Shown one piece after another: positions 17,019 to 52,148 of a DNA stretch of 52,354 nt (positions within the stretch are counted from its first letter, which is position 1; every line of letters starts with the position of its first letter). Position numbers and translations under genes: made by a program. The DNA lies in the NCBI GenBank assembly GCA_964524125.1, contig CAZGBY010000002.1:1-52354 (forward strand). The letters run 5' to 3'. The notes under the pieces are model-generated. The model searched no databases. It worked only from the letters and a program-made list of their open reading frames with translations, and was not told the origin of the DNA. Origin of the DNA: an uncultured Clostridium sp. GTDB lineage: Bacteria > Bacillota_I > Bacilli_A > Acholeplasmatales > Anaeroplasmataceae.

Positions 17019-17020
17019 AT

Positions 17021-17800
17021 ATGAGAATTGCAAAGAATAATCAAATTATTAAAGATTTAAAGGAACTTCAAAAATCTAATAAATCTGATTTAATATATGT
17101 TGATGATTTATCAAGTATTAAAGCATATGTAAATAAAAATAATAAAGTAGAAACATTCTTATATTGTGACGAAATAGAATATCATGAAGACACTTTATTA
17201 TTAATTAAAAAAATAGAGAAGCTTGCAAATAATACATATACAATATCTAAACAAACTTATGAATCTTTAAGACTTAAAGAAAATTCTGCAGGATTAATAT
17301 GTACAGTTAAATTTATTAACCATCCTTTAGATGATTTAAAAAATGAGGAAGTAATTATTGTATGTGATAGACTTGAAATACCTGGAAATATTGGTACTAT
17401 TTATAGAACTATGGAAGCAACCAAATTCAACGCAATGATATTAACTGACGCTGTCGTTAAACCCCAAAGTGCTAAATTATGTCAAGCATCACGTGGTGCA
17501 AATTTATTAATACCTACTTCTTCAGTTACATATGAGGAAGCTCAAAAATGGTTACTTGATAATGGATATGAGATATTTTTAGGAGAACCTAATTTAGGAT
17601 TATCATATAAAGATTATGATTATAAAGGGAAAATTGCAATTGTTGTAGGTCATGAACGATTTGGAATTAATGATAGTTGGTATAATAATCCTCACAAAAA
17701 AGTATTCATTCCTATGTTTGGTTCTAATAATAGTTTAAATGTAGGAGTTGCGGCTTCTATACTTATATATGAAGCTAAGATGAAGAAAATAAATGAATAA
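17021..17800 (+). CDS. TrmH/SpoU-family RNA methyltransferase
   Basis: Motifs: EIPGNIGTIYRT, VVGHERFGIN, SLNVGVAASILIYE. It starts 2 nt after the regulator gene. Confidence 0.8.
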   Translation: MRIAKNNQIIKDLKELQKSNKSDLIYVDDLSSIKAYVNKNNKVETFLYCDEIEYHEDTLLLIKKIEKLANNTYTISKQTYESLRLKENSAGLICTVKFINHPLDDLKNEEVIIVCDRLEIPGNIGTIYRTMEATKFNAMILTDAVVKPQSAKLCQASRGANLLIPTSSVTYEEAQKWLLDNGYEIFLGEPNLGLSYKDYDYKGKIAIVVGHERFGINDSWYNNPHKKVFIPMFGSNNSLNVGVAASILIYEAKMKKINE

Positions 17801-17940: not shown

Positions 17941-20138
17941 CTATTTTTCATATACCAAATCAATTATATTAGTTTTATTTATTTTCTTTTTACATAGTAA
18001 ATAATAAATACCAGTAAAAACAAATAAGACTAATATCATAGTTAAAATCGATAGGATTGAAAATGATGTTAATCCATAATCAACTAATTCAATATCTCTT
18101 AGTAACATATTAATTGGTTCAGTAAGTATTGATGATAAAATCATATTTACCATTGACACAATAAACATTATACTTACTGTATCAATAAATATAATACTTA
18201 CCATATCTTTTTTATTTATGCCAAAACTTGCAAATATACCAATTATTCGTGTTTTCTTTCTTTTACTTGCATTAATATATGTGACAGATATATAAAATCC
18301 AATTAATAAAAATATAAGAGATATAACTAACAGTAATATATTAATAATGTTTTGATATTTCAAATTATCTTCTATTTTTTCAGAATAGTTTGAAATATCT
18401 GTAAGACCAAAATTATGCATTCTTTTAACTTCTTTAGTTGTAACACCATTAAATACAGTTATTCCATATCTATTATTTTCATAATGCATATTATATATGT
18501 TTTCAAATTCATTATCTGTAACAGTATAATGGTAAGAATTAGTTAATCCAACTATAATATATGTTTTAGGATAGAATTCTAAAGAAGCAAAATCAAGTGT
18601 TGTTCGAGCATTATATTCATAATAACTCGGTATAAAATAATTTACTGTAAGTTCACGATTTAATAATTTCTCAAAATCCATATAATCTTCTTCAGTTAAC
18701 AATTCATTTCTTACTAAATAAGAATCAATCCCAACAACAATCTCATCATCCTTTTCAGGCATTCTTCCTAAATAGCATTGACTTGTTTGTTCTGAAACAC
18801 TACATATCGTTGTTTGCTGAATACTACGGCTAATATATGTGGCATAAAAATGTTTTGATAAATTATTATATGTAGAATCATATGTATTTTCGTTTATAAA
18901 TATATATTTTTCGTAATAATTATAATCATTACCTTGATTAGAGTTGCTTATTCCAACAACTTTAACTTTAAAATATAATTTACTGTTATTTTCGTTATAA
19001 TTAAATTCAATGTTTTGATTTAATAACTCACTTACATTTTCACAAAATTGTTTTGCAAAAAATTCTGGCAAAATAACCTCATTATCATTAATAACATTTG
19101 TACCATATAAAATTTTTGTAGGACATTCGTCAGCTAAAATAATTTTATCTGTCTTTTCATAACAACCATTAAATTTAATATAAATATTTTTAAATATTGT
19201 CTTTTTTTCATTTTTATTCAAAGAATTCCAATCAAAATCAATTAAAGATTCTTTATATGTAATATCGCTATCTTCAAATGTTTTATGAAATGACACTTCT
19301 TCAACAATCTCTTGATTATAAGCTTTTGATACTTTCTTCGCTTCACTAGTATATAAAAAATTTAGTGAATATGTTAAGAAAAATATTGAAATGAGTAAGA
19401 AAATCGAGTACGTAATTATTCTAGCAAGATTCTTCTTAAATTGATAAAAACTTAAATTAAATAGATTTTGAGTCCTTACTTGTGGTTTTAAAACTTCAAT
19501 GTTTTTATTTGAATTACTTAGATCTACCTTCATAATTTCTTGAATATTTCCATCTTTAATCTCATAAATTCCATCACTTATATCTGTAAAGAATTCTTTA
19601 TCATGAGTAACTACAATGACTAATCTTTCTTTTGAAATTTCCTTTAATACGTTTGAAACAATTAGTGCATTTTCTTCATCTAGTGCACTAGTTGGTTCAT
19701 CACATATAATAACAGTTTTTTTAGAAAGTAAAGCTCTTATAATTGATACTCTTTGTTTTTCTCCACCAGAAATTTTTTCAATTTTAGAATCTTTAATATT
19801 TGTTAAATCAAATTTATCTAAAGTGTTTAATAATAGTTTTTCATCTAAACAATTAAATAATTCCATTATTAATTTTATATTTTCGTATACTGTATATCCT
19901 TCTATTAATTGAGAATCTTGAAATACTATTGTTGAAAAATAATCATCTGAATAATTATGAATTATCTCTCCACTAGTTTGTGTATCAAGACCTGAAATAA
20001 TATTTATAAGAGTAGTCTTTCCTGTTCCACTTCTTCCTATAATAGAATATAGCCCAGTGTCGTAAAAGATATATTAACATCATTTAAGACACATTTTTTA
20101 TTATCATATACCTTGTTTATATTCTTTAAATCAATCAT
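17941..20138 (-). pseudogene. Fused ABC ATPase / FtsX-MacB-type permease, interrupted by a single frameshift near codon 23
   Basis: ATG 20138 sits behind AAGGAG. The first frame stops at 20037-20039. Walker A (IIGRSGTGKTTL), the signature (ISGGEKQRVSIIRAL) and Walker B (VIICDEPTSALD) continue in the frame of the 641-aa ORF. Adding one T to the T4 run (forward A4 at 20064-20067) restores ...NISFYDTGLYSIIGRSG. Confidence 0.8.
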
Positions 20139-26904: not shown

Positions 26905-27888
26905 TTATTTTAATTTATTATTATATTTTAAAATATCTTTATTAACTTCAAGATTGTTTACTTTAAATTCATTCAAATGCCTATCAATTAAAGTATTTAA
27001 TACTTTATCAAAATCATCAAATAAAAAATAAGATAAACTGCCAGGTAATGTATTTACTTCATTTAAATAGATTATATTATCTTTAATAAAGAAGTCTATT
27101 CTTACAATATCTTTACATTCAAGTATTTTATATACCTTACTACCTATTTCATATATATTATTTACAATATTATCATCACTTATAAAATGATGATTAAATC
27201 CTTTATTATTAGTTAAATACTTATTATCAAAATCAAATATATCATTGTCATATTCATTTTTTTCTACTTTAGACATGATTATATCTTTTCCATCAAAATA
27301 GAATGCTGTACAATATTCATCCTTATCTTCTAAATACTTTTCTATTATTAATTTATTATCATATTTTAAACTATCATATTTAAAATATTCTAGTTCTTCT
27401 TTATTATTACATATATGTATACCTAAAGAAGAGCCACATCTTGCTGGTTTTAAAATTACAGGATAATCTATACTAATATTTTCATTATATAATTGTTTAT
27501 CTACTTGTATTATATTATTATATTTTAATAATAAATAAGTAAGCCATTTATCCATTGATATTATACTAGAATACAAACCACTACCTAAATATCTAATATT
27601 ATAAAAATCAAGTATTCCACTTATTCTATCTTCTATAAGATATCCATGGTTTATTAATATAATAAAATCTATATCAGTATTATATACTTTACTATTTTTA
27701 AAATATACTTTTCTTCCTTTTTTATTAATTATATTATCTGTAGTAGGCTTTTTAATTAGAAATAAATTATTTGATTTATCTAAATATAAAAATTTAAAGT
27801 CTTTATATTTATTATAAATAGTTAAGGCACTAATAATAGATATTTCATGTTCAGAAGAGTTTCCACCACAAAGTATTGCAATACTCAT
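26905..27888 (-). CDS. ddl: D-alanine--D-alanine ligase (ATP-grasp)
   Basis: IAILCGGNSSEHEISIISA N-terminus, ILKPARCGSSLGI, and C-terminal LNEVNTLPG. Confidence 0.85.
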   Translation of the reverse strand: MSIAILCGGNSSEHEISIISALTIYNKYKDFKFLYLDKSNNLFLIKKPTTDNIINKKGRKVYFKNSKVYNTDIDFIILINHGYLIEDRISGILDFYNIRYLGSGLYSSIISMDKWLTYLLLKYNNIIQVDKQLYNENISIDYPVILKPARCGSSLGIHICNNKEELEYFKYDSLKYDNKLIIEKYLEDKDEYCTAFYFDGKDIIMSKVEKNEYDNDIFDFDNKYLTNNKGFNHHFISDDNIVNNIYEIGSKVYKILECKDIVRIDFFIKDNIIYLNEVNTLPGSLSYFLFDDFDKVLNTLIDRHLNEFKVNNLEVNKDILKYNNKLK

Positions 27889-27926
27889 TAAATCACCTAA
27901 ATAAATATATGTAATTAAATAAGAAT

Positions 27927-29357
27927 TTATTTATAAATATCAGGTATATCATTTTCTATTAATATTACATCAAATCTATTTATCGCTATACTTAGAGCTT
28001 TATTAACATTTGAAATATATTCTTTTTTAATATCTATTAAATCATATAGAATATTAGAATTATAAGATTTAACAATATATGCATAGTCACACGTATTATT
28101 AATCATATTTGCATAATTTATATATAATTCATTAATTATAGAGTCACATTCTACAAATCCAGGTGTGATTATACATTTAGATTTATTAGTATAACTATTT
28201 AATATATTTATAGCTTTTAATGCTCCATTTATATTAGAATTAAATGAATCATCAATAATTGTAGAATTATTTATATTATATATATTTTGTCTATTTAAAG
28301 GCCTTTTTAAATTATCTATATTATAGATGATTTTATCTATATTTAAATTATAAATAAATCCTAGAATTATACTTGGTAATATATTAGAGATATCTATAAT
28401 ATCTTTATTATTTTGTTTAAACTTAAGTATTAAATTATCATATGCATAAATATATACTTCATCATATTTAATTTCATATCTAAAATCACCATTTTTACCA
28501 TATGTAATGATATAAGCTTTAGTATTTAGTTTAATATTATTTAAATATTCATTATCTATATTAATAATACTTAAATCATTAGTCTTCAAGTTATTAAATA
28601 TAGATATTTTTTCTATTATGATATTATCTATATTTTTAAAACTATTTAGATGCATATGTCCTATTGATGTTAAAATGCATATATTAGGTTTAAAAGTACT
28701 TGTTAATTTTAATATTTCACCTTTATTTGATGTACCAAATTCTAATATTAATTTATCATATAAGTTTAAATTAGAATCATTATTGATTTGTAATGAAATA
28801 CCATTTAAAGTATTATATGATTTTTTAGTAGAAAAAACATTTAATTCATTTAATATTTGACTCATATAATACTTAGTAGATGTTTTACCAAACGAGCCTG
28901 TAATTGCTATTATATCATTATTATAATCATTTAATTTATTTAAAGCTTTCTTATGATATCTATGATTAATATGTTCTTCTATTATATTTAAAATATAATA
29001 ATTTATTATTATTAATACTGGATATAAAATATATAAGTTTGATTTTACTAATAATATATTAAATATTAGATTTGAAAGTATTAATCTTATTATTCTTTTA
29101 GTATATTTAAGTTTGATTCTTAAAGTATATAGTATATAAAGATAGTATATTAAATATAATAAAGTACTTATTATGAACATTATATTATTACTTATTAAAT
29201 ATATTAAAAACATAATAAAATTAAGCATTATTAATGATAAATGTCTTTTAATATATATTAAATATTCTTTTATATTATAATGAGTTTGTTGGTATATAGT
29301 TATATAAAACAATGAAGATATTTGTATTATAGTAAACCATAATATATTATTTAGCAT
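27927..29357 (-). CDS. murF: Mur ligase (MurF-like, UDP-MurNAc-tripeptide--D-Ala-D-Ala ligase) with a hydrophobic roughly 140-aa N-terminus
   Basis: P-loop AITGSFGKTSTK. It is adjacent to ddl. The N-terminal region is made of Leu/Ile/Tyr-rich predicted TM segments instead of the usual soluble domain 1. Confidence 0.7.
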   Translation of the reverse strand: MLNNILWFTIIQISSLFYITIYQQTHYNIKEYLIYIKRHLSLIMLNFIMFLIYLISNNIMFIISTLLYLIYYLYILYTLRIKLKYTKRIIRLILSNLIFNILLVKSNLYILYPVLIIINYYILNIIEEHINHRYHKKALNKLNDYNNDIIAITGSFGKTSTKYYMSQILNELNVFSTKKSYNTLNGISLQINNDSNLNLYDKLILEFGTSNKGEILKLTSTFKPNICILTSIGHMHLNSFKNIDNIIIEKISIFNNLKTNDLSIINIDNEYLNNIKLNTKAYIITYGKNGDFRYEIKYDEVYIYAYDNLILKFKQNNKDIIDISNILPSIILGFIYNLNIDKIIYNIDNLKRPLNRQNIYNINNSTIIDDSFNSNINGALKAINILNSYTNKSKCIITPGFVECDSIINELYINYANMINNTCDYAYIVKSYNSNILYDLIDIKKEYISNVNKALSIAINRFDVILIENDIPDIYK

Positions 29358-30870: not shown

Positions 30871-32229
30871 TTATAAGAAACTTGCCATATAATATGGAAG
30901 ATATATTATTTCGTCTTCTCTTTTAATATCTCCATCATGAAGTACGTATTGAAGACCTATCTTACATGAAAAAGTAGATTTGAATTTTTTTAATGATACA
31001 ATAGAATCAGAAGATGAAGACTTAACCTCGATTGGAATTACTTTATTATTTCTCCTAATTAAAAAGTCAATTTCCATTATAGTTTTCTTTTTTTCTTTAT
31101 CAATTTTTTTATAGTAGTAAATTATGTCGCCTTTACTTCTTAGCGCTTGCGCTGTTATATTTTCAACTATCATACCTTCATTAATATGGAGTTTATCAAA
31201 TAGAATTGCTCTATATAATTCATTTTCTAAATAATCTTGATTTTTATACGCTAGTGAAACTAACAAACCCGTGTCCATCATATAACATTTAAAAGAAGGA
31301 TTAATTGTTGACAAATTAAACGCTGCACTAGGGTCATTAACATTTTCTGCAATATTTATAATCATCGCTTCATTTAACCAATTTAATGGGCCTTTATATT
31401 CTCTTAATCTAGCATTAGAATCCAGATGCAATAGGTTATATTTTTTATCGTGCTTAGACAATTCAGAAGGTATGTGCCAAAACAAATTCTTAACATATGT
31501 AGGATTTTCCTCTTGTTGATTATCCATATCATTTTCATATAACTTTAATATATTTTGATTTATAAAATCAGTTTCCCCAAAATCTTTTGTATTAATATAA
31601 GCATCAACTGCTTGAGGCATTCCGCCAACCAACATATATTCACGATAAGAATACATCAGTGATTTATGCAAATCTCCAAAAGGTTTAAGTTTTTCAAAAT
31701 GAGTTTTCATTATACTATAAGAGAATTCATCACCTTTAGCTAATAGAAATTCCTCGAAATCCATTGGAAGTACATCGATTGAATATTCTTCTGAAGGGAT
31801 TAGAATATTCTTAGATTTTTTCGTGATAGAAGCTAATGATCCAGTTTCAATATAATCAAAACGCTTATCTTCTAATAATGTTTTTAAAGCTTGTCGTGCT
31901 TATGGAAATAACTGTACCTCATCTAAAATAATTAAAGATTCTCGAGGATATAATTTCTTTTTATAAAAGAATTGCAGTTTTATAAAAAAAGAATCTAGGT
32001 CCTCTAACGAATTAATAAATAAATCTTTTATTTCATGAGGAACCGTGTCAAATCTTATTTCAATAAAGCTTTTATATTCTTCTCTTGCCAATTTATTTGC
32101 AAGAGTTGATTTACCAACACGACGAGGACCCCTTAAAAATAGAGCATAATTCGGAGCATACTTTTCTTTCCATTGTAGCATCTTATCATAAACTTTTCGT
32201 TTAAATTCTATTTTTTTTGTCTCAAACAT
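30871..32229 (-). pseudogene. AAA ATPase with a C-terminal DUF4143 / PD-(D/E)xK-like domain (COG1373 type), interrupted by one in-frame TAA
   Basis: Walker A GPRRVGKSTLA and Walker B LIILDEVQLFP, immediately followed by a TAA at 31900-31902. The same frame then continues ARQALKTLLEDKRFDYIETGS... into the 297-aa ORF. The C-terminus EIDFLIRRNNKVIPIEVKSS is nuclease-fold-like. Confidence 0.8.
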
Positions 32230-40535: not shown

Positions 40536-41447
40536 TTAATTTATAACTTCATCGAAGTTAAATATTTTAGAATGATTTTTATCTAAAGATGGCACAATTC
40601 TTTCAATATCTTTATCAATAAATCTTTCCATCTTAATTTCAGGATATAAATCTATATCAAATGATGTTGTTTTTATACCATAAAGTTTATATTCACAACC
40701 ATCTTTTCTTAAAATACCATAAGAAGATATATAATAATAATCAGCTATATTACCAAGTAAATCTTTCATGTTGATATTTCCTTTAACACATGTCTTATAA
40801 AGTTCTACATTACCTTCAACATCTAAAACAAAAATGATTTGATATTCTTTGCTAACCTCAGCTTTAATAGTTATTACATTACAGTCATCTTGTGGTTTTG
40901 GCATTTTAGCTTTAATTATAGTCATAACTATAAAGTAAATAAACAATGTAATACAAATAATTGAAACAATTTTAGAAGTTAATAACTCAGTTTCATAACT
41001 AGATGTATAATTTATGGAATAATAAACCCATGAAAATATACCACCTGCGCCAAGTACTCCAGTTATAACTAAAGGTACTGCATAAGACACTTCCTTACCT
41101 TTAACTTCTCTTTCAAATCTTCTTTGACGAGCTGATTTGAATTTCATACCAGGATTTATAGCATAAATTGTTTGTATATACATAAATATTACAACAGCAC
41201 TTGATAAAACACCATCTAAGATTATATATAAAGGTTCATTACCTTGAGCAACATATGTATTATAATTGATTAAGGTATCAATACCATATAACCATAAAAG
41301 TAAAGCATCTAGTACAGATACTAAAATAATAGCCCACATTTTCTTTCTTTTAATTGAACCAATAAAAGATACAATACTTACAATTATTCTGTTCAAAAAA
41401 AATACTTCTATAAGTATAAAAAATAAATTTAATAATACTGAAACCAT
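40536..41447 (-). CDS. Hypothetical polytopic membrane protein with a roughly 110-aa soluble C-terminal domain
   Basis: It has about 5-6 hydrophobic segments and no motif I recognise. It has its own promoter and lies downstream of kinase A. Confidence 0.5.
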   Translation of the reverse strand: MVSVLLNLFFILIEVFFLNRIIVSIVSFIGSIKRKKMWAIILVSVLDALLLWLYGIDTLINYNTYVAQGNEPLYIILDGVLSSAVVIFMYIQTIYAINPGMKFKSARQRRFEREVKGKEVSYAVPLVITGVLGAGGIFSWVYYSINYTSSYETELLTSKIVSIICITLFIYFIVMTIIKAKMPKPQDDCNVITIKAEVSKEYQIIFVLDVEGNVELYKTCVKGNINMKDLLGNIADYYYISSYGILRKDGCEYKLYGIKTTSFDIDLYPEIKMERFIDKDIERIVPSLDKNHSKIFNFDEVIN

Positions 41448-41477
41448 ATAAACAACGCCTTTCGCTATAACGTTTAT

Positions 41478-41506
41478 ATTTTACTATAATAAATATGGGA
41501 TTTCAA
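41478..41506 (-). promoter_or_regulatory. Sigma-A type promoter of the 303-aa membrane protein gene
   Basis: The minus strand reads TTGAAA (41501-41506), exactly 17 nt, then TAAAAT (41478-41483). Confidence 0.55.
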
Positions 41507-41522
41507 GAAAAATACTTTTAAT

Positions 41523-41554
41523 ATTATGTGAATAATTATGTGAAATTATGTATT
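41523..41554. repeat. Three adjacent direct repeats ATTATGTGAA / ATTATGTGAA / ATTATGTATT just upstream of that promoter
   Basis: Copies start at 41523, 41535 and 41545. The array lies between the kinase A stop (41560) and the -35 element. Confidence 0.7.
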
Positions 41555-41559
41555 GTTAA

Positions 41560-42843
41560 TTATTTAACTTGAATTAAAAGTGACACTTTAAAGCACTTTC
41601 CGTCTTGCATGGTTTGCACATCGCCATTATATCTTTTTGCAATTTTTTTTACATTATCAAGACCTATGCCATGACAAGTTTCTTCTTTATTACTTTTAAG
41701 TCCTATATTAATTGTGTTACATGTATTTATAACCATAACATTAATGAAATTATTTACATTATTAATTTTTAGTTGAATTTTATTTTTCAAAGGATCATTA
41801 CATCCCTCAATTGCATTATCAAGTAAATTACCAACAGCAACACATAAATCTAAACTATTAACTCCATCAAATTCTAAAATATTTGATTCGCAATTAAATT
41901 CTATATTCTTATCTATCATTATTTTTCTTTTTGTATGAATTAAAGCGTTTAGTGAATCGTTTGTAGTATATTTCATATTTTCATTTGATTGAATTACACC
42001 ACATATTTCATCAATCAAATTCATTCCTTCTTCTGGGTCATCTTTAAGAATTTCTTTAATTGCATATAACTTATTTTTTAAATCATGCATTTCTTTAGAC
42101 GAATTATTTTGATTTTTAATCATTTCTTTTAAATATGATATTTCATTATTTAATTGGCTAACAGTTTCACTATCAACTTCCTGTTTTTTTGAATAATTTA
42201 ATACATATAAAACAATTACTGTAAATACAAAATATATAATATGTAAAGATAATAGTGTAAAGACAGAAAAATAATAAAATACAACAAAATTTTCTTTAAA
42301 AACCAATTTCATTATATAAGTCAATAATAAACAAGAAACAATTATAATGATTGATTTAAAAGAATCTAAATTCACCACTTTATTTTTAAATCTTTTTATC
42401 AAAATGTAAATAATAAAATTAAAAACAATAAATAATATCAAAAAAGACAAATAATCACGCCAAAAATTGCAAATAGAATTTGTACTAGAATGAGCATAAA
42501 ATTCATTACAAATGTTAAATATTAGATAGTTTGTAAACAAACAATATGTTTCAATTATAGAAATTAAAAGTATTCTTTTTTTTATATTTTTTTCTTTTGT
42601 GAGAAAAATATAAATATAACTAAATGGCATCAAATAAAATACATACCAACTATTTTTAAATTTTATCAATAATAGTATATATATGATCAAACTAATTACA
42701 AGTATTGTTATACAGATTTTCTTTTCTTTAAATTTACAATTATTTATTTTAAAATAATATAATATAATGTAGGCTTGACTAATAAACAATATTATATTCA
42801 TTATCAAAACCAATTCGAAACTATACTCACGTAAATTCATCAT
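41560..42843 (-). CDS. AgrC/ComD-like (HPK10-type) membrane sensor histidine kinase, module A
   Basis: The N-terminal polytopic region spans about 225 aa. H-box EMHDLKNKLYAIKE, N-box VGNLLDNAIEGC, G-box HGIGLDNVKKIAKRYNG. Confidence 0.85.
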   Translation of the reverse strand: MMNLREYSFELVLIMNIILFISQAYIILYYFKINNCKFKEKKICITILVISLIIYILLLIKFKNSWYVFYLMPFSYIYIFLTKEKNIKKRILLISIIETYCLFTNYLIFNICNEFYAHSSTNSICNFWRDYLSFLILFIVFNFIIYILIKRFKNKVVNLDSFKSIIIIVSCLLLTYIMKLVFKENFVVFYYFSVFTLLSLHIIYFVFTVIVLYVLNYSKKQEVDSETVSQLNNEISYLKEMIKNQNNSSKEMHDLKNKLYAIKEILKDDPEEGMNLIDEICGVIQSNENMKYTTNDSLNALIHTKRKIMIDKNIEFNCESNILEFDGVNSLDLCVAVGNLLDNAIEGCNDPLKNKIQLKINNVNNFINVMVINTCNTINIGLKSNKEETCHGIGLDNVKKIAKRYNGDVQTMQDGKCFKVSLLIQVK

Positions 42844-42856
42844 ATCATCATCCTTT

Positions 42857-43561
42857 CTAATATAATTTTAATAAATATTTATTTAAACTTTTAATAACTT
42901 CTTCTTTGTATTTTCTACTAATAGGAATATTGTCAGAATTATCATTAAATTTAATCATATTATTATTAATTTCATATATATATTTAATATTAACCAAATA
43001 ACTTTTATGAGACTTTATAAAACCATACTTAATTAAAGTTTGTTCGTATTCATAAAGTCTTCCCGTTGTCTTATAAGTTTTATTTTTAGTATGAATAAAA
43101 ATATCTTTAACGATAATCTCTAAATATAAAATATCATTAATATCTAATATATACAATTTATTTTCCGATTTAAAACTTAATTTATAATGATTTTGAAAAT
43201 ATAAATCAATAGCTCTTTTCAAATCAATCTTTAGATTTTCCTCATCCATAGGTTTTTGTATATATTGAAAAGTTCCTACCCTAAATATATCAGTTATATA
43301 ATTACTATAAGATGTTTGAAAAAATACTATTAAAGAAGAATTTCTTTTTTGTAATTCTTTTACAGTATCAATACCATTTTTTCCTGGCATTTCTATATCT
43401 ATAAATAGTATATCGATAGAATAATCATCATCAAGTATAGAATTACCAGAGGTATATGTTTTTATTGTATACTCTGTATTAATATTAGATTTTTCTATTA
43501 TATTTGATACTTGATCAATATATTTAATATCATCATCACATATTGCAAAATTAATCATCAT
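42857..43561 (-). CDS. LytTR-family response regulator, module A
   Basis: Receiver domain (ICDDD, FIDIEMPGKNGID, KP) plus a C-terminal LytTR DNA-binding domain (FIKSHKSYLVNIKYI). Confidence 0.9.
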   Translation of the reverse strand: MMINFAICDDDIKYIDQVSNIIEKSNINTEYTIKTYTSGNSILDDDYSIDILFIDIEMPGKNGIDTVKELQKRNSSLIVFFQTSYSNYITDIFRVGTFQYIQKPMDEENLKIDLKRAIDLYFQNHYKLSFKSENKLYILDINDILYLEIIVKDIFIHTKNKTYKTTGRLYEYEQTLIKYGFIKSHKSYLVNIKYIYEINNNMIKFNDNSDNIPISRKYKEEVIKSLNKYLLKLY

Positions 43562-43590
43562 ATACCTCTTTCTTACTTTTTAATTAATAA

Positions 43591-44853
43591 CTATATAGTA
43601 TTTTTACTCGCAGTCATTGAAGCTCTTAAATTCTTATTAACCCAATCATCTGAGCCAATCCCTGAAGCAGAATATCTTATATATAATGTATTTAAAGTTT
43701 CATCTATTTTAGAAATATCAATATTATAAAATTCAAATATATACAAACTATAAGAACTAGTTCCACTTATTTTATCACTACTAGTGATTAAGTAATCATT
43801 AGAATTCTTTAAACTCGAATATAAATGAATATGTTGATAGCCATCATTTATTTCTTTTATATAAATATTCATTCTAAATGATAAGTATTTATATCCCAAA
43901 TTCTTTAAACATTTTACATCAATACCATAATATTTATTAAAGTTAATTATATCAAATTTTTGTCCAAATGTATTAGTTTTATCGGTAATTAAATATTCAG
44001 CTTCATTATCTTGTCTTACAATAGTTTTATATCCAAAATGGTATGAATCAGCTCCTCCAAATAAATTATAAGGATTATATGAGATAGAATTACTTACAGC
44101 AACTTGTTCTATATTATCTCCAGAAATAGTTACATTCCCTAAAGAGCCAACATTAACAGAGACAGAAACATCATACATCTTATGCACATATTTACTATAT
44201 ATTTGAATTTCACCTGATTCTATGATATCAGATTTTGGTTTGATTTTGAAAGTTGTATAATTTGATACATAACTATCAATCCACTTCTTTGCACCAAATT
44301 GTACAAAATTAGAACCTATATCAGATAAACTTTTAGTAACATTGTAATCATATAAATTTCCTTTTGAATAAGTCGCATACGAAACAACACAAGCACTATT
44401 ATCAACATATCTAAAATTACTATCATCCCAAGACACAACATTAATATCTTCTAATGTCTCATTAACATGTACCTTCCAATAACTAATTACTTCTACTCTA
44501 ATATACTCTAAATTACCGTCACTATCATAAGAATTCCATAATAATAAATTATGAGAAAAGTCATCTTCTGATAATGTAGAGCGAGCATTAGTTATAAATC
44601 CTGATTTTTCTAATCCATTAAAAGAGTCATTATTAGATATTGAATTATCATAAATCAATTGTAACATAGTTTCATCTAAATCAGATATAAAATCAATATC
44701 AATGCCTTTTTCAAGCAAGAATTCTTCCTTTTCATTTGTTAAACTTTTAGTAATACTTGAACTTTGCATATCTTCATTAGTTTGAGCATTAACTGCATTA
44801 CAATTATAACATATTCCAAATAATACCAAAATACATAAAATAATTTTCTTCAT
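43591..44853 (-). CDS. Secreted hypothetical protein, first gene of the module A operon
   Basis: Signal peptide MKKIILCILVLFGICYNCNAVNA. The mature part is beta-rich with no motif I recognise. ATG 44853 sits behind GAGGTG. It ends 29 nt before the regulator gene. Confidence 0.6.
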   Translation of the reverse strand: MKKIILCILVLFGICYNCNAVNAQTNEDMQSSSITKSLTNEKEEFLLEKGIDIDFISDLDETMLQLIYDNSISNNDSFNGLEKSGFITNARSTLSEDDFSHNLLLWNSYDSDGNLEYIRVEVISYWKVHVNETLEDINVVSWDDSNFRYVDNSACVVSYATYSKGNLYDYNVTKSLSDIGSNFVQFGAKKWIDSYVSNYTTFKIKPKSDIIESGEIQIYSKYVHKMYDVSVSVNVGSLGNVTISGDNIEQVAVSNSISYNPYNLFGGADSYHFGYKTIVRQDNEAEYLITDKTNTFGQKFDIINFNKYYGIDVKCLKNLGYKYLSFRMNIYIKEINDGYQHIHLYSSLKNSNDYLITSSDKISGTSSYSLYIFEFYNIDISKIDETLNTLYIRYSASGIGSDDWVNKNLRASMTASKNTI

Positions 44854-44909
44854 CTTGACACCTCGATTAAACATTTTATCATTTTATAATAGTTTTTAAA
44901 CCCTTTTAC

Positions 44910-44941
44910 CATAAAATGCAATTTCATGGTTATAAAATACA
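44910..44941 (-). promoter_or_regulatory. Pair of 21-bp-phased direct repeats, a candidate LytTR binding site upstream of operon A
   Basis: The minus strand reads TGTATTTTATA (44931-44941) and TGCATTTTATG (44910-44920), with starts 21 bp apart. The same motif and phasing occur upstream of operon B. Confidence 0.5.
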
Positions 44942-44954
44942 CAACATTACAATA

Positions 44955-44982
44955 CAAAAGAGTAGTTTAAAACTACCCTCTT
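44955..44982 (-). terminator. Terminator downstream of the ABC exporter pair
   Basis: Minus-strand stem AAGAGGGTAGTTT / AAACTACTCTT (one bulge), followed by a T-rich tract. Confidence 0.45.
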
Positions 44983-44990
44983 AAATAAAA

Positions 44991-46784
44991 TTATTTATTC
45001 TTAAGCCCCTCATATTGAGAATCATACATATCCTTATATATCATACAATTATCATATAAAAATTCATGTGTTCCCTCACCCTTAATTAATCCTCCATCAA
45101 GTACAACTATTTTATTTGCATCCTTAATAGTAGATAATCTGTGTGCAATTATAAACGTAGTTCTTCCCTTACAAACTATATCCATTGCATGTTTAATTTT
45201 AAGTTCAGTAGCCGTATCTATATTAGCAGTTGCTTCATCAAGTACTAAGATTTTAGGATTTCTTAAAAGTATTCTTGCAAAAGATATTAATTGTTTCTCA
45301 CCTAAAGATAGATTTTCACCTTTAAAAGAAATATGTTGATAAATACCATCTTTATGTTTATCTATTATATATTTAGCTCCTACTTCTTCTAAAACCTTAA
45401 TTACTTCTTCATCAGTAAAATCATAATCTAATGTTACATTACTTTTTAAAGTACCTTCAAATAAAGCTGGTGTTTGAAGTACAATACCACAATGACGCCT
45501 ATATAAAGCTTTATTATACTGCTCTATATTATTGCCATCAACTAATATTTCACCACTTGATGTATCGTTGTATTGAAGTAATAGATTCATAAGACTAGAT
45601 TTACCAGAACCAGTATGTCCAACTACACCTACTTTTTCTCCTGGCAGAACTTCTAGATTAATACCATGAAGTACTTCTTTATCTTCAACATAAGAAAAAT
45701 GTACATCTTTAAATTCAACATGACCTTCTATCCTATTTGGTGGAGTTAAACCTTCAAATATTCTAGAATCATCAACCTCATCAATAAACATATATACACG
45801 ATTTGACGCAACCATTGAATCTTCAAGTTCATTTAAATTATTAAATATTGTATTAATAGGATTGATCATTCTATCGATATAATTAGTAAATGTAGTAATA
45901 AGCCCTGCAGTTACAATAACACTAGCTATGTTAAAGTATGCATACCCAAAATATATTAAGATTCCTGCTTCTGCAAGTCTTTTTATGAATATTAAAAGTT
46001 CCCATCCAAAATAGGCAGCTATTGTATTTACTTTTTTATCTTGATTATTATAATCAGTTACTAATTCTTTATAGTCATCAAGCATATATTCTTCTTGATT
46101 AAATGCTTGTATAACTAAAGTACCTGATATTAATTCATTTAATTTACCTGTAATACGAGAAGATGTTTCTCTTAGTTCGGTATAGAATTTATGTACTTTC
46201 TTTCTATAAAATGTTATCCATACTAAAATAATAGGAGCTAGTACAAGAATAATTAAAGAAAGTTGCCAAGTAAGTAATATCATACCAACATAAACACATA
46301 CTAAATTAACAAAGGCTTGTCCTATAGAAAAATATACATTAAAATATGTTCTTACACCATTTGAATCTGAAGTTATTTTAGATACTATTTTACCATCTGG
46401 TTCAAGTGAAAAGTAATCTACTGGTAAATGATTTATCTTTAAGATAGCATCTTCTCTAATACTTCTTTCTATATTCATACCAGTCAAATTTAATATATAA
46501 TTTTGAGCATATCTTAGAATTACTACTACAATAGTTAATATACTATATTGTATTAATAATAGTTTTATCATTTTAAAAGCTTCTTCTTTAGTTAATATAC
46601 CATCTAGTGTAGGTGATATATATTCATCTAAAATAGCTTTAGTAATACGAGGTGTAATAGTAGTTAAAATTGCAATACTTATTGCAGTTATAATACAAAA
46701 TATTATTTTAATCTTATTTTTCAATATATAAGGAAGAGTTCTTTTAAGTAAACCTGATTTGTTATATTTATCATATTTAGCCAT
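44991..46784 (-). CDS. ABC exporter half-transporter (TMD-NBD), the canonical-NBD subunit of a heterodimer
   Basis: Walker A GHTGSGKSS and Walker B with catalytic Glu (ILVLDEATANID), but a degenerate signature LSLGEKQ. Confidence 0.9.
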   Translation of the reverse strand: MAKYDKYNKSGLLKRTLPYILKNKIKIIFCIITAISIAILTTITPRITKAILDEYISPTLDGILTKEEAFKMIKLLLIQYSILTIVVVILRYAQNYILNLTGMNIERSIREDAILKINHLPVDYFSLEPDGKIVSKITSDSNGVRTYFNVYFSIGQAFVNLVCVYVGMILLTWQLSLIILVLAPIILVWITFYRKKVHKFYTELRETSSRITGKLNELISGTLVIQAFNQEEYMLDDYKELVTDYNNQDKKVNTIAAYFGWELLIFIKRLAEAGILIYFGYAYFNIASVIVTAGLITTFTNYIDRMINPINTIFNNLNELEDSMVASNRVYMFIDEVDDSRIFEGLTPPNRIEGHVEFKDVHFSYVEDKEVLHGINLEVLPGEKVGVVGHTGSGKSSLMNLLLQYNDTSSGEILVDGNNIEQYNKALYRRHCGIVLQTPALFEGTLKSNVTLDYDFTDEEVIKVLEEVGAKYIIDKHKDGIYQHISFKGENLSLGEKQLISFARILLRNPKILVLDEATANIDTATELKIKHAMDIVCKGRTTFIIAHRLSTIKDANKIVVLDGGLIKGEGTHEFLYDNCMIYKDMYDSQYEGLKNK

Positions 46785-46785
46785 A

Positions 46786-48546
46786 TTACATTCCTTCCTT
46801 TGTTGTCATTTGTTGTTCTATAAAAAGATTATAATAAAATCCTTTTAAATCCATTAATTCTTGATGAGTACCTTCTTCTTTTATATATCCATTATCAAGT
46901 ACTATAATATGATGAGCATGCATAACTGCAGAAAGTCTATGAGCTACAATAATATTAGTTTTATCTTTTCTATATAAATTAAGATTTTTAATTATATTAG
47001 ATTCTGTCTTACCATCTACAGCTGACAAAGAATCATCTAATATCATAACATCTGCATTTTTCATAAATGCACGAGCTATAGAAAGTCTTTGTTTCTGACC
47101 TCCAGAAAGAGTTACTCCATATTCACCAACTATAGTATCTAAACCACAAGGTAGGTTTTCAATATCCTTTTCAAAGTCTGCAAGCTCAATTGCTTTATAT
47201 ATATCTTGTGTATCTACATCATGAGCTGAAGTACCAAGGCGTACATTTTTAAATACACTACGAGAAAATAACATATGCTCTTGAGGTACATAACCTATTC
47301 TTGATCTTACTGATTCTTTCTTATAATTTTTTATGTCCATACCATTAATTAAGATTTTACCATCAGTTATCGGAAATTGACGCATTAATTGGCGAACTAA
47401 AGTTGATTTACCACTACCTGTTTTACCAACTATACCAAGAGTTTGTCCTTCCTTTATTGTAAGATTAATATGATTAAGTACCGGGGATTCATCACCAGGA
47501 TAAGTAAAAGATATATCTTTAAATTCTATTGATTTAACTTCATCTAAATCATAAGCATTATCAATATCTAAAATTACTGATTTAGAATTATATATTTCAT
47601 TTAATCTTTCAAGCGAAATAATACTTTGATAGAAATTAGTAAGCATATTTCCTATATTTGTTAAAGGTGATGATAAATTATTTAAGTATACAATAAATTG
47701 AATAAATAGGGCAACAGTAAAACCAGTATAAGAATTATTGATAAGCATGTAACCTGCCATTGCATATGATATTATAAGTGAAATAGCTGTAATTGATTGA
47801 AATATTGGTTGGAAAATAACATTTATTTTTAAATTCTTTCTTTCTATATCATATACTCTTTTTGATTCAATTAAATTTTTCTTATAATTAGATTCTTCTA
47901 AAGAATATGCTCTTATAGTTCTTACGTTAGTAATACTTTCAAGTACTACATTTCCCATTTGACTTGAAGCATCTCTTACTTCTTTCCAGTTTCTTTTTAC
48001 TTTAACTTTTAAAATAATATTAGTAATAAATATTAAGGTTAAAGGAAGTACTGAACATAAAGTAAGTAATGGATTTATTAAAATCATCGCAATTACATTA
48101 ACAATAATTACGGTAAATTCAAATGATATATTTAAAAGTCTATTTCCTCCTGAGAAGTTAACGCTTTTAACATCTCCTAAAGCTCTTGTAAGTAAATCTC
48201 CTGATTGAAAGTTTTCAAAGAAAGTAGCGTCTTGTATGATTATATTTTGCATATAACGTACTTGAAGGGCATAGAAAAGTTTTACTTTTAGCCTATTTTG
48301 AACAACTCTTTTTGTAGTAGTAATTAAATATATACTTATTGCAGTTAATATGGAAAATAATCCTATATGATAAATCATATATGATTTTGTAAGAGTATTA
48401 TCAGTTATTCTTGTAGTAAAGTCTCCTAATATATATGCTGGTATTAAACATATGAATGCTTGAATAACACCTAGTATAAATATTATTATGTAATATAGCG
48501 GATGTTTACGTATAAACCACCACATTTCTTTTATGAAGTTAATCAT
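46786..48546 (-). CDS. ABC exporter half-transporter (TMD-NBD), the degenerate-site subunit of a heterodimer
   Basis: Walker A GKTGSGKST and canonical signature LSGGQKQ, but Walker B MILDDSLSAVD carries Asp in place of the catalytic Glu. There is no N-terminal C39 peptidase domain. Confidence 0.9.
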   Translation of the reverse strand: MINFIKEMWWFIRKHPLYYIIIFILGVIQAFICLIPAYILGDFTTRITDNTLTKSYMIYHIGLFSILTAISIYLITTTKRVVQNRLKVKLFYALQVRYMQNIIIQDATFFENFQSGDLLTRALGDVKSVNFSGGNRLLNISFEFTVIIVNVIAMILINPLLTLCSVLPLTLIFITNIILKVKVKRNWKEVRDASSQMGNVVLESITNVRTIRAYSLEESNYKKNLIESKRVYDIERKNLKINVIFQPIFQSITAISLIISYAMAGYMLINNSYTGFTVALFIQFIVYLNNLSSPLTNIGNMLTNFYQSIISLERLNEIYNSKSVILDIDNAYDLDEVKSIEFKDISFTYPGDESPVLNHINLTIKEGQTLGIVGKTGSGKSTLVRQLMRQFPITDGKILINGMDIKNYKKESVRSRIGYVPQEHMLFSRSVFKNVRLGTSAHDVDTQDIYKAIELADFEKDIENLPCGLDTIVGEYGVTLSGGQKQRLSIARAFMKNADVMILDDSLSAVDGKTESNIIKNLNLYRKDKTNIIVAHRLSAVMHAHHIIVLDNGYIKEEGTHQELMDLKGFYYNLFIEQQMTTKEGM

Positions 48547-48571
48547 AATACCACCTTCAATCTTAAACTAT

Positions 48572-48600
48572 ATTTTACAACTTTCTACAAAATATAACAA
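48572..48600 (-). promoter_or_regulatory. Sigma-A type promoter of the ABC exporter pair
   Basis: The minus strand reads TTGTTA (48595-48600), exactly 17 nt, then TAAAAT (48572-48577). Confidence 0.55.
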
Positions 48601-48876
48601 GGAAAAACTATAGCAAAATTTTATGTTGTTAATAATTTTATCTTTATAAGCATTTACTAAAGATTTTACTATTACTTTTGGATGCTCATAAATAGTTTAT
48701 AGCTTTTAGTGCATTTGGTATAATAACTACTTCTAACTCATATTTTTTCAAAAACTTTCTTTTATAATATTAAATATAAATGAATTTACATTCACCAAGC
48801 ATACTATAAAATAAACCTTCAATTATTTTATTTGGACTAGTGGTTACACATATATCATATAGAATTTCCTATTATT

Positions 48877-48924
48877 AAAAAAAAGATGATAAATTATAAT
48901 TGGACAATATAATTTTATCATCTT
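48877..48924 (-). terminator. Terminator of operon B
   Basis: 15-bp stem with one bulge (48884-48898 / 48908-48923). The forward A8 run at 48877-48884 is a T-run on the minus strand. Confidence 0.7.
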
Positions 48925-48940
48925 CTATGATTCTAATAGT

Positions 48941-49417
48941 TTAACACCAAGTTTCTATAAATCCTATATTAACATCTAAGTTTGAATCATCTTCATTTAA
49001 AGACACTCTAACCTTTTTAACACCTGCTATAAATACAGAATATCTAACATCTGAAATCTTATGACTTTCTAATAAAGTTAATTCATCATAATCAGTTACT
49101 TTTAATTCATAATTATCATAACTAAAATATGCATCTAATTTTTCAAATATTAAATATGATGTATTGTCTTTTAATATAAATTCATTATCATCATTTCTAT
49201 AAACATTATAATATGTTAATACATATGTATTCTTTTTTTCTTTATCCTTTAATTTAATGCTCTTCTCTTCCTCATAAGCTACAATATCTAGTTTTGAAGC
49301 ATCTATTGTAAATGAGCCACCATTGCTTATTTGTGAAATATATATAAAGAATATTATTATAGCTACACTTATTACTGATAAGAATATAGCACTTGAAATT
49401 ATTATTTTTTTCTTCAT
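48941..49417 (-). CDS. Hypothetical membrane-anchored extracytoplasmic protein, last gene of operon B
   Basis: A single N-terminal TM (IIISSAIFLSVISVAIIIFFIYI) and then a beta-rich domain. ATG 49417 sits behind GAGGTGA; the track start is a GTG inside the RBS. Confidence 0.55.
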   Translation of the reverse strand: MKKKIIISSAIFLSVISVAIIIFFIYISQISNGGSFTIDASKLDIVAYEEEKSIKLKDKEKKNTYVLTYYNVYRNDDNEFILKDNTSYLIFEKLDAYFSYDNYELKVTDYDELTLLESHKISDVRYSVFIAGVKKVRVSLNEDDSNLDVNIGFIETWC

Positions 49418-49488
49418 TTTTCTCACCTCATTTGTATAATAAAACTAATAATTTAAATGTTCAATAATATAAACCTATTAAGCAATAT

Positions 49489-50070
49489 TTAGAACTTATT
49501 ATGCATATATTTATTTATACTTTCAATAATTAATAATATAGTACAAATGACTAAGGGAATTCCTACTGAACTTAAATATATAAGATTTAATTTATATAAT
49601 CTATTAAACATAGATATGAATAATAAAATTACAGTTAATAAGATAGATATTATATTAAATATTAGCTTATTAGTTTTATTATTTAATTTAATAAAATAAG
49701 TATTGACATAATTTCCTGGACTTAACAAAATTATAGGAAATAGACAAATAATTGATGACCAGAATGCAAATGTATTTGATATCTCATCCTGAGGTATTAT
49801 TTCATTAATAAATAATATTAATATTAATACACCTATCTTTGAATAATTATGTTTAAGTTTATAACCACTAATTACAAAATCAAATATTATAAATGATAAA
49901 CTAATTATTAATGTCCCAATTACTTTTTCAAATAATATACTGTACATAACTAATATTAATGCTACAAGTAAATTAAATATTATATGTTCTACTATATAAA
50001 TATTTTTTTCATTATTTTCGTTATTTCTAAATAATATTTTATCACAAATTAATTTAGCAAGATATTTCAT
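49489..50070 (-). CDS. Hypothetical polytopic membrane protein with an AgrB-like layout, lacking the AgrB catalytic His/Cys
   Basis: 193 aa with about 5-6 TM segments. It starts 2 nt after the kinase B stop. The segment FIIFDFVISGYKLKHNYSKIG lies where AgrB proteins carry R..GG.HA.....C. Confidence 0.45.
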   Translation of the reverse strand: MKYLAKLICDKILFRNNENNEKNIYIVEHIIFNLLVALILVMYSILFEKVIGTLIISLSFIIFDFVISGYKLKHNYSKIGVLILILFINEIIPQDEISNTFAFWSSIICLFPIILLSPGNYVNTYFIKLNNKTNKLIFNIISILLTVILLFISMFNRLYKLNLIYLSSVGIPLVICTILLIIESINKYMHNKF

Positions 50071-50072
50071 TT

Positions 50073-51335
50073 CTAGCCCTCCTTTTCTAGTAATAATATT
50101 TCTACTTTGAATTCATTATTATTTGTATCAATATTAATGACTCCATTATATTTTTTAACAAGATTTTTAACACTATTGAGTCCTATACCATGTAATAATT
50201 TATTTTCTTTACTAGTTAATAAACTTATATTATCTTTTGTATTATTATTCACCATAATACTCAAACAATTAACATTTACTATCATAGATAGTTCAAGATA
50301 TCCATTATCTAATTGATTTATATGTTCTATTGAATTATCTAATAAATTACCTAAAATAACTAATATATCTAACATTTCAATATTTAAATCATTTATCTTA
50401 TCTATTCTGATGTCATATTTAAATACTTTGTTATTTTCTAAGTTCTTAAGTTTACTATTTATTAAAGAATTAATATAATAATTATTAGAATAGTTTATTT
50501 GATTTGGTTTATCAACTATATTACAAATATTATCAATTAACGTTAAAGCTTTCTCTTTATCTTTATTAATAAGATCTTTTATTAAATAAAGTTTATTCTT
50601 TAAATCATGAACTTCTTTATTTGATATCTTATAATTACTAACTAAATCAACAAAATAATCTCTTTCATTTTCAATTTGTCTATTAATAATTTTGTCCTTA
50701 GTAGTTTCAATTAAATTATCATAATAACTATCCAAAATATTTAATATAATGAAATTTATAAACAATAGTATAAACAAAATAATATATATCAGGTTATTGT
50801 TAATATTAGAGTATAGTGATATATGATATATAATAATTGATAAGAATAAACATAGTATAGATACTAATAAAAAGTATAATATTTTAAATAAATTAAATTC
50901 ATATAATTCATACCTTTTCTTATATAAATAAAATTTTAGCAAGATTAAAGTTAAGTTATTTGATATTATGATAATATTTAAAAATTCTTCATTAAATAGA
51001 GTATTTATATCTTGACTAGAATTTAAAGAAGATATTATAAATATCACGAATGCTATCCCAGTAATTTTAAATATATTATATAAAGAGATATTTAATAAGT
51101 TTTTCTTCCAACATTTTAAATTATGGAATATATGAATATACTTAATAATAAAATATACTAATAAAGAAATTATCTTATTAGAAATAAATATATTAATAAT
51201 ATTAAAACATATAAAATAAAATATAATTATTAAAATTGATTTGATTTTATTTTTATTAGAAACATTAATAAATAATATTAACATTAAAAATTCTATTAAT
51301 GAAACCAATATTGTCATTATAATTTCAAATATCAT
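50073..51335 (-). CDS. AgrC/ComD-like (HPK10-type) membrane sensor histidine kinase, module B
   Basis: H-box EVHDLKNKLYLIKD, N-box LGNLLDNSIEHI, G-box HGIGLNSVKNLVKKYNG. There is an ATGA overlap with the regulator gene. Confidence 0.85.
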   Translation of the reverse strand: MIFEIIMTILVSLIEFLMLILFINVSNKNKIKSILIIIFYFICFNIINIFISNKIISLLVYFIIKYIHIFHNLKCWKKNLLNISLYNIFKITGIAFVIFIISSLNSSQDINTLFNEEFLNIIIISNNLTLILLKFYLYKKRYELYEFNLFKILYFLLVSILCLFLSIIIYHISLYSNINNNLIYIILFILLFINFIILNILDSYYDNLIETTKDKIINRQIENERDYFVDLVSNYKISNKEVHDLKNKLYLIKDLINKDKEKALTLIDNICNIVDKPNQINYSNNYYINSLINSKLKNLENNKVFKYDIRIDKINDLNIEMLDILVILGNLLDNSIEHINQLDNGYLELSMIVNVNCLSIMVNNNTKDNISLLTSKENKLLHGIGLNSVKNLVKKYNGVINIDTNNNEFKVEILLLEKEG

Positions 51336-52042
51336 ACTATTTTCTCCATTATATATTTATTAAATTTTAATTTAAATTCATCTTTATAATTTCTACTTAA
51401 AGGGATTATATCAGTGTTATCTTTTATTAGTATATAATCATAGCCAAGTTTAGAAATATAATTCATATTAATTAAATAACTCTTATGAGATTTTACAAAA
51501 TTATATCCTAATAACTTTTTTTCATATGTATTAAGATTTCCCTTAAATTCTAACACTTTATTATCTGTTAGAATCATTTTAATTTTATGTTGATAAACTT
51601 CTAAATATTTAATTTGTGATACTTCTTGATAGATAATTTCATGATTAACATCTATATTTAATACAAAATGTATTTTCGTATAATATTCTAATGATCTGAT
51701 TATATCTTTTTGAAGTTCTTCTTTATTAATTGGTTTATGTACAAATTGAAATGTACCTAATCTAAATATTTCAGTTAAAAATTTATCATATAAAGTACAA
51801 TAAAATATAATCATGTTAGGATTCTTCTTTTTAAGTTCTTTTACAGTATCAATTCCATTAATTTCTTTCATTTCTATATCAATAAATAAAATATCAATAT
51901 TTTTCTTACAGCTACTTAATAATTCCTCACCACTTAAATAAGTATCTATTATATAATCATAATTAATTATTGTATCTATAAGAATACTTTTAATTTCATT
52001 AATATACTTAATCTCATCATCACATATACATATATTTAACAT
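51332..52042 (-). CDS. LytTR-family response regulator, module B
   Basis: ICDDE, FIDIEMKEINGID, KP, and a LytTR domain FVKSHKSYLINMNYI. It is a clear paralog of the module A regulator. Confidence 0.9.
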   Translation of the reverse strand: MLNICICDDEIKYINEIKSILIDTIINYDYIIDTYLSGEELLSSCKKNIDILFIDIEMKEINGIDTVKELKKKNPNMIIFYCTLYDKFLTEIFRLGTFQFVHKPINKEELQKDIIRSLEYYTKIHFVLNIDVNHEIIYQEVSQIKYLEVYQHKIKMILTDNKVLEFKGNLNTYEKKLLGYNFVKSHKSYLINMNYISKLGYDYILIKDNTDIIPLSRNYKDEFKLKFNKYIMEKIV

Positions 52043-52058
52043 ATTGCACCTCTATTAA

Positions 52059-52072
52059 TAGTTAGCTAACTA
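52059..52072. promoter_or_regulatory. Perfect 14-bp palindrome in the 5' leader of operon B
   Basis: TAGTTAGCTAACTA lies between the predicted -10 (52085-52090) and the RBS (GAGGTG, 52047-52052). Confidence 0.4.
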
Positions 52073-52084
52073 CAATTAAATTAT

Positions 52085-52148
52085 ATTATAGTTTTATATT
52101 TTTACAAGAATTTAGACTTAAAATACAGTTTTTAAAACCTTAAATACA
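52085..52148 (-). promoter_or_regulatory. Activator-type promoter of operon B with two 21-bp-phased direct repeats (candidate LytTR site)
   Basis: The minus strand reads TGTATTTAAGG (52138-52148), then TGTATTTTAAG (52117-52127), 3 nt, a poor -35 AAATTC (52108-52113), exactly 17 nt, and TATAAT (52085-52090). Confidence 0.55.

Follow-up and report, generated by a model that had tools for sequence, protein, structure and literature searches.

How could two Agr-type sensing operons come to stand close together with no gene beside them for the peptide that they would detect? The question is raised by a locus at positions 40536 to 52148 of a 52,354-nt stretch of DNA from an uncultured Clostridium sp. 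(assembly GCA_964524125.1, contig CAZGBY010000002.1), which was analyzed whole and is called the window here; the genes of the region all lie on the minus strand, as do the promoter and repeat features located below. Two operons, A and B, each pair a LytTR response regulator (RR_A, RR_B) with an AgrC-like histidine kinase (HK_A, HK_B), and the genes of a heterodimeric ATP-binding cassette (ABC) exporter lie between them. From domain content, homology, loss of catalytic residues, absence of a precursor open reading frame (ORF), promoter repeats, synteny, and allelic structure, we infer that these are probably two autoregulated, receiver-only circuits—A an orphan AgrCA-like pair and B a degenerate agr locus—that sense peptides made elsewhere.

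Do the regulators and kinases belong to the Agr class? Profile searches against Pfam found a receiver domain (Response_reg) followed by LytTR in both RR_A (42857 to 43561) and RR_B (51332 to 52042) and a GHKL ATPase domain (HATPase_c_5) in both HK_A (41560 to 42843) and HK_B (50073 to 51335). The kinases have polytopic sensors of about six to seven hydrophobic segments and a common H-box, HDLKNKLY (VHDLKNKLY in HK_B). Staphylococcus aureus AgrC is the only match of HK_B among solved structures (PDB 4bxi, 6e52), while HK_A gives a weak full-length match to the staphylococcal AgrC family of NCBIfam. A first-pass annotation, made from the sequence alone, had placed both kinases in the HPK10, AgrC-like class and had taken the operons for paralogous duplicates, and both assignments stand: the regulators are 44% identical end to end, and the kinases are 33% identical across their C-terminal 250 amino acids (aa), the dimerization and ATPase half. 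An exact-sequence look-up with RR_A found no other contigs carrying it, and a metagenome search with the cytoplasmic half of HK_A returned distant kinases only.

The ancestry of operon B can be read from its relatives. Of the four closest kinase relatives whose gene surroundings could be seen, three lie in complete regulator/kinase/AgrB/AgrD loci: L005 (kinase P0005, 31% identity) has the order regulator-kinase-AgrB (GGYHANTHLTC)-AgrD-AgrD, L028 (P0006) the order regulator-kinase-AgrB-AgrD (…CAWWANQPKVP), and L030 (P0008) the order regulator-kinase-AgrD (…CCFFFHQPKLP)-AgrB. The fourth, L007 (P0009), carries a regulator and a kinase followed by 357-aa and 146-aa genes, without AgrB. The complete loci indicate that operon B is a degenerate derivative of such a regulator-kinase-AgrB-AgrD locus from which agrD has been lost. 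The region had been described as matching no characterized Agr-type locus; operon B, however, keeps the regulator-kinase-AgrB order of clostridial-type agr loci, with RR_B and HK_B overlapping by 4 nt and only 2 nt between HK_B and the gene that follows.

That gene (49489 to 50070) encodes a 193-aa protein which had been counted among four accessory proteins without a recognizable motif, but it matches the Pfam AgrB family (PF04647) over its whole length at 28.4 bits, above the gathering score of 23 (E = 1.3e-6). A profile-profile comparison (hhalign) with six canonical AgrBs agrees (97.1% probability, E = 7e-11, 178 columns). It is the only AgrB-family member of the two cassettes, operon A having none. 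Where canonical AgrBs read GG[FY]HAxTHxxC, the window reads SGYKLKHNYSK and P0002, its one close relative in 5.8 billion proteins (59% identity), reads GLFKIKQNYLK. The catalytic His is thus replaced by K71 and the catalytic Cys by K78, both lysines recur in P0002, and the conserved Arg seven residues upstream is absent as well. In S. aureus, AgrB proteolysis requires R70, G75, H77, and C84 (PMC10196373). Because His and Cys are both lysine and agrD is missing, operon B is predicted to be unable to produce an autoinducing peptide by the known mechanism. The protein, a putative pseudo-peptidase, is encoded by an ORF that is intact in the window and in the ortholog genome, and its ratio of nonsynonymous to synonymous polymorphism (pN/pS) of 0.64 (P = 0.003) shows weak purifying selection. 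When 1.8 billion representatives were searched exhaustively with a HMMER profile, only two further proteins came up, both canonical AgrBs (Pfam 1e-29 and 1e-33), the solved structures held no sequence relative, and a search of species-representative genome contigs with the AgrB-like alignment found nothing. A full-text literature search found no paper tying AgrB to a pseudoenzyme or to catalytically inactive variants.

Could a precursor have been overlooked? A regular expression for the AgrD signature (Cys-x4...QP..P) recovered the AgrDs of the related loci L004-L006 and found none in the window, in two contigs with orthologous loci (L001 and L003), or in L010, a metagenome-assembled genome (MAG) of Clostridium sp. 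CAG:307. A hidden Markov model (HMM) built from four related-locus AgrDs and run on all six frames of the same four sequences scored its positive controls at 1e-26 to 1e-31; its best match in the window (E = 2.9) lies inside HK_A on the wrong strand. Double-glycine leaders were sought by regular expression in stop-to-stop ORFs of 20-130 aa in the window, with no match, and the small ORFs of the intergenic gaps have no AgrD-like features and are not conserved in relatives. One candidate, a 25-aa ORF at 48844-48921, was rejected, as it lacks the features of an AgrD and L001 does not keep it. The earlier failure to find an AgrD- or ComC-like ORF is therefore borne out by all three scans, and it extends to the true orthologous loci of L001 and L003, a comparison that had been named beforehand as a test. 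Rfam returned no RNA family in the window, hence no RNAIII-like or riboswitch element.

What, then, might the kinases sense? One indication comes from HK_A. L003 is a sister strain with 90-93% identity to the window in the flanks; between the two, RR_A and the HK_A cytoplasmic half show 94-97% identity at a synonymous divergence (dS) of 0.21-0.29 (97% aa identity and dS 0.21 for the cytoplasmic half of the kinase). The sensor half (aa 1-225, about 42150-42843) is only 54% identical in amino acids (dS about 1.0) and is sharply delimited: nucleotide identity is 55-75% within the segment and 90-97% in its flanks. The same segment also diverges from L001, and there are two alleles, one common to L001 and L003 and another in the window. 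On this divergence, the HK_A sensor is a set of old receptor alleles shuffled by recombination, like agr/com pherotypes. No neighboring gene covaries with the allele—the secreted protein of operon A is 91% identical across carriers of different alleles—and the allele pattern of operon B differs from that of HK_A.

This polymorphism bears directly on the possibility that the kinases sense no peptide at all. They would then belong to AgrCA-like systems uncoupled from quorum sensing, for which Clostridioides difficile RgaS-RgaR is the precedent (PMC10602386), and a membrane, metabolite, or host cue would act through them on the adjacent secreted and anchored proteins. Such a cue would fit a locus with no precursor gene and with both the His and the Cys of AgrB replaced, and the related regulator-kinase pair of L007 likewise does without AgrB or AgrD. 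However, sharply bounded old alleles are typical of receptors that coevolve with a polymorphic peptide and are hard to explain for a fixed chemical cue, and HK_B has true agr kinases as its nearest kin; we consider this explanation unlikely. Examples of AgrCA-like pairs with no link to AgrD, or no longer coupled to it, are already on record, RgaS-RgaR among them (PMC10602386).

A second alternative is that operon B is a decaying, nonfunctional agr remnant and that operon A alone works. It accounts for the loss of agrD and of both AgrB catalytic residues, and decay is plain in L003, where RR_B is split by a frameshift, foreign sequence replaces HK_B after residue 259, the AgrB homologue is gone, and the gene for the anchored protein that closes the operon is reduced to a fragment. 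The operon B proteins also evolve fast (59-64% identity, compared with 91-93% for the ABC genes); because dS is similar in the two sets, the difference reflects relaxed or diversifying protein evolution and not an older origin. Yet all four ORFs of operon B are intact in the window and all three visible ones in L001, the AgrB homologue, the 158-aa anchored protein, and the kinase all have a pN/pS significantly lower than 1 (P = 0.003 to 1e-9), conservation of the promoter and repeats reaches 98%, and both substituting lysines are conserved between orthologs, so that we regard a mere remnant as rather improbable. At 2680-5516 of L003, the truncated HK_B runs into unrelated sequence; next come a 513-aa orphan and three small ORFs of 67, 75, and 70 aa, which occupy the place of the AgrB homologue and of most of the gene for the anchored protein.

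Are the receiver-only circuits likely to regulate themselves? The motif TGYATTTWA-N12-TGYATTTWA, two 9-bp direct repeats with a 12-bp spacer and a 21-bp period, precedes both operons. Repeats of 9 bp at 21-bp phasing are the geometry of the sites bound by AgrA, ComE, and PlnC, which are LytTR regulators. The candidate regulator-binding site of operon B (52119 to 52148, repeats TGTATTTAA and TGTATTTTA) lies 11 bp upstream of the -35 hexamer of a sigma-70-like promoter, TTGTAA-16-TATAAT (52080 to 52107), that is predicted by consensus match only; that of operon A (44912 to 44941) reads TGTATTTTA-N12-TGCATTTTA at the same 21-bp period. L001 and L003 both keep the operon A pair, which matches 9/9 in L003 as a perfect repeat, and the operon B site differs by one base in L003, within a promoter/repeat region that is 98% conserved. 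The phased repeats proposed earlier for the two operons hold up; a shared stretch, GGTTTAAAAACT, is not conserved in relatives and was discarded as a motif. Autoregulation, as first suggested, is probable given the shared repeats, and the near-identity of the repeat cores makes it plausible that the circuits cross-talk. In the mechanism we propose, HK_A and HK_B would sense a peptide from an unlinked locus or from other gut bacteria. Repeats with LytTR geometry at each promoter suggest that the phosphorylated regulator most likely activates its own operon through the paired direct repeats. The response would consist of raised cassette expression together with the cotranscribed 158-aa anchored and 420-aa secreted proteins.

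Is the region a single functional island? The gene positions first given for both operons, the ABC pair, and a 303-aa protein were reproduced from the ORF map. In the order of transcription, the region opens with the 3' end of nfo (endonuclease IV), which bears a hairpin and T-run, and continues through operon B; a 394-bp noncoding gap then leads to the ABC half-transporters (ABC1, SmdA/Tet46A-like, 46786 to 48546; ABC2, SmdB/Tet46B-like, 44991 to 46784), with a hairpin 3' of the pair. Operon A follows, then the gene for the 303-aa protein, which has five transmembrane segments (40536 to 41447) and a terminator on its 3' side, a 487-aa ArAE/HAD protein, and suf genes. Both transporter proteins start at the membrane domain and contain ABC_membrane and ABC_tran only, resembling SmdAB/Tet(46)-type heterodimeric exporters; an exporter without a C39 peptidase domain, as originally described, is what the domain searches show. 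In species-representative genomes, an ABC1 search identified MAGs labeled Clostridium sp. CAG:307, uncultured Mollicutes, and Anaeroplasmataceae as neighbors of the window (76-85% identity). Of these relatives, L011, L012, and L013 have ABC1-ABC2-303-aa-(487-aa)-sufC free of cassettes, and the 303-aa gene abuts ABC2 in L010-L013. In L010, nfo directly adjoins ABC1, and a different cassette (regulator, kinase, canonical AgrB) follows the 303-aa gene; in L011 and L012, other cargo lies between nfo and ABC1. By this neighborhood comparison, the conserved backbone is nfo, ABC1-ABC2, and the 303-aa, 487-aa, and suf genes, while operons A and B are, on the same synteny, separate insertions into variable junctions (hot spots) that flank the ABC pair. 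Because the ABC pair and the 303-aa gene are present in cassette-free relatives, they are core genes and not cassette parts. The region is thus not one island, the implied functional link of the cassettes to the exporter and the 303-aa protein is not supported, and the idea of the ABC exporter as a dedicated signal exporter was rejected on synteny. The 303-aa protein matched no family in PHROGs, PADLOC, Pfam, or NCBIfam.

Several further observations concern these junctions and the rest of the window. In L001, a 442-aa AAA_14/DUF4143 protein of the PADLOC candidate defense family PDC-S01 (E = 1.5e-170) is encoded at 2991-4319 on the minus strand, between a 161-aa gene and ABC1, so the junction upstream of the ABC pair also appears to collect defense-type cargo; the window itself has a 297-aa ORF with DUF4143 only (30871-31764). 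The canonical AgrB of L010 (FGGYHAKTHIGC, 16739-17516) is followed directly by an ABC ATPase gene, and no AgrD ORF was found between it and the contig end; for this reason, agrD may often be absent or unlinked in this lineage. Several of the closest database relatives are labeled Mollicutes or Anaeroplasmataceae, although the organism probably makes peptidoglycan, because the window encodes a D-Ala-D-Ala ligase and a Mur-ligase-domain protein (26905-29357, the lowest G+C stretch at 17-21%). A 641-aa ORF (17941-19866) with the C-terminal third of an ABC ATPase domain and an FtsX permease domain may encode a MacB-like transporter that has lost its N terminus or was given the wrong start.

The outputs of the circuits would include proteins of no known family: neither the 420-aa secreted protein that opens operon A (43591 to 44853; signal peptide, ATG start preceded by a ribosome-binding site) nor the 158-aa N-terminally anchored extracellular protein that closes operon B (48941 to 49417; ATG preceded by the ribosome-binding site GAGGTG) matched a family in Pfam, NCBIfam, PHROGs, or PADLOC. 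Their AlphaFold2 models, with predicted local distance difference test scores of 43 (three-sequence alignment) and 42 (single sequence), respectively, were unusable for fold searches. The 158-aa protein has a 64% identical ortholog in L001 and a remnant in L003, and an exact-sequence look-up found no other contigs carrying it. In L001, an extra 380-aa secreted protein (1244-2386) separates the AgrB homologue from the anchored protein and weakly resembles (E = 0.019) the 357-aa secreted protein (9279-10352 of L007) that follows the regulator-kinase pair there, with which it shares a Cys-Gly motif (GNCGYVG / TDCGVIA). Neither has a family match, and the two may represent a recurrent secreted, cysteine-peptidase-like accessory gene. 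For the 420-aa protein, a search of 5.8 billion proteins yielded just two homologs. Measured against L001, its gene and RR_A have a dS of 0.15-0.32; since the adjacent core ABC genes have 0.6-0.8, this suggests that operon A was recently exchanged horizontally between lineages.

That the signal is local but unconventional—a fragment of the 420-aa or 158-aa protein, possibly handled by the AgrB homologue at a relocated active site, or a tiny unannotated ORF exported by the adjacent ABC transporter—seems very improbable to us, for although the secreted protein holds the first-gene position that classically belongs to the precursor in autoinduced pheromone operons and the AgrB homologue is retained with conserved Cys109 and His190, L003 keeps RR_A and HK_A without the secreted gene (the operon A promoter being joined straight to RR_A), the HK_A allele covaries neither with the secreted protein nor with the operon B allele, one homolog, 41% identical to the secreted protein, has unrelated GNAT/NUDIX surroundings, the ABC pair is core in cassette-free genomes, and the intergenic small ORFs are not conserved.

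How firmly does the reading of two receiver-only circuits stand? Several points weigh against it. The analysis covers 52 kb of the genome, so a signal made elsewhere is a prediction; the alleles and the decay of operon B are defined by only three related contigs, all metagenomic. The phased repeat has two matches in 52 kb at one mismatch or fewer, compared with about 0.1 expected by chance, but the pattern was derived from the same two sites, which makes the count partly circular and the chance estimate optimistic; conservation of the repeats in relatives is the stronger argument, by sequence comparison. The pseudo-AgrB, being only weakly constrained, could be heading for loss rather than functional, and its conserved Cys109 and His190 may conceivably form a relocated active site. 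More speculatively, and as a long shot, the lysine-substituted, noncatalytic AgrB might be kept under selection as an Agr receptor partner (a coreceptor, peptide-binding, or transport subunit) in a listener-only circuit that eavesdrops on the gut autoinducing peptides of other species, or else the pherotype-like HK_A sensor alleles might follow variation in a signal that belongs to a new, non-AgrD class and whose gene lies apart from the receptor.

Why does such a locus matter? Firmicutes rely chiefly on Agr-type circuits for peptide quorum sensing, and hardly any study has reached these circuits in uncultured gut lineages such as CAG:307 and its Anaeroplasmataceae-like relatives. The locus illustrates how Agr-type circuits may be gained at hot spots, duplicated, and dismantled, and it offers a natural receiver-only configuration (dead AgrB, no AgrD, intact kinase and regulator). 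Two of its features are unusual, namely, a Lys/Lys AgrB homologue that is conserved in an ortholog and sensor polymorphism without a linked peptide. Receivers that prove active would parallel, in a Gram-positive, the LuxR solos and would serve for eavesdropping; inactive ones would give a clear snapshot of agr decay. Either way the advance is incremental, not a new kind of system.

How do the two circuits compare with known systems? Operon B shares protein families, gene order, translational coupling, and a direct-repeat promoter with clostridial-type agr loci (agrA-agrC-agrB-agrD, as in L005, L028, and L030 of uncultured Firmicutes and in C. difficile agr2), but it has no AgrD, has lysines in place of the AgrB His and Cys, and carries the 158-aa anchored gene in the precursor's place. 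With S. aureus agrBDCA the locus has in common the protein families, the AgrC structure match, 9-bp repeats with a 12-bp spacer, and a hypervariable sensor (HK_A); however, gene order differs, no RNAIII-like divergent transcript was detected by Rfam, and the hypervariable segment is confined to the kinase instead of reaching an AgrB/AgrD pair. HPK10 kinases, LytTR regulators, and autoinduced promoter repeats (here, putatively autoinduced) are also found in ComCDE, Blp, and Pln, but this locus has no double-glycine-leader peptide and no C39 ABC transporter, its exporter being a multidrug-type heterodimer encoded by core genes. C. difficile RgaS-RgaR, an orphan AgrCA-like system, is a LytTR/HPK10-type pair without an adjacent precursor, its signal unlinked or absent, and C. 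perfringens VirS-VirR is likewise such a pair with no precursor beside it. In contrast to these, two paralogous copies here flank a core ABC operon, one keeping a dead AgrB and the other having pherotype-like sensor alleles.

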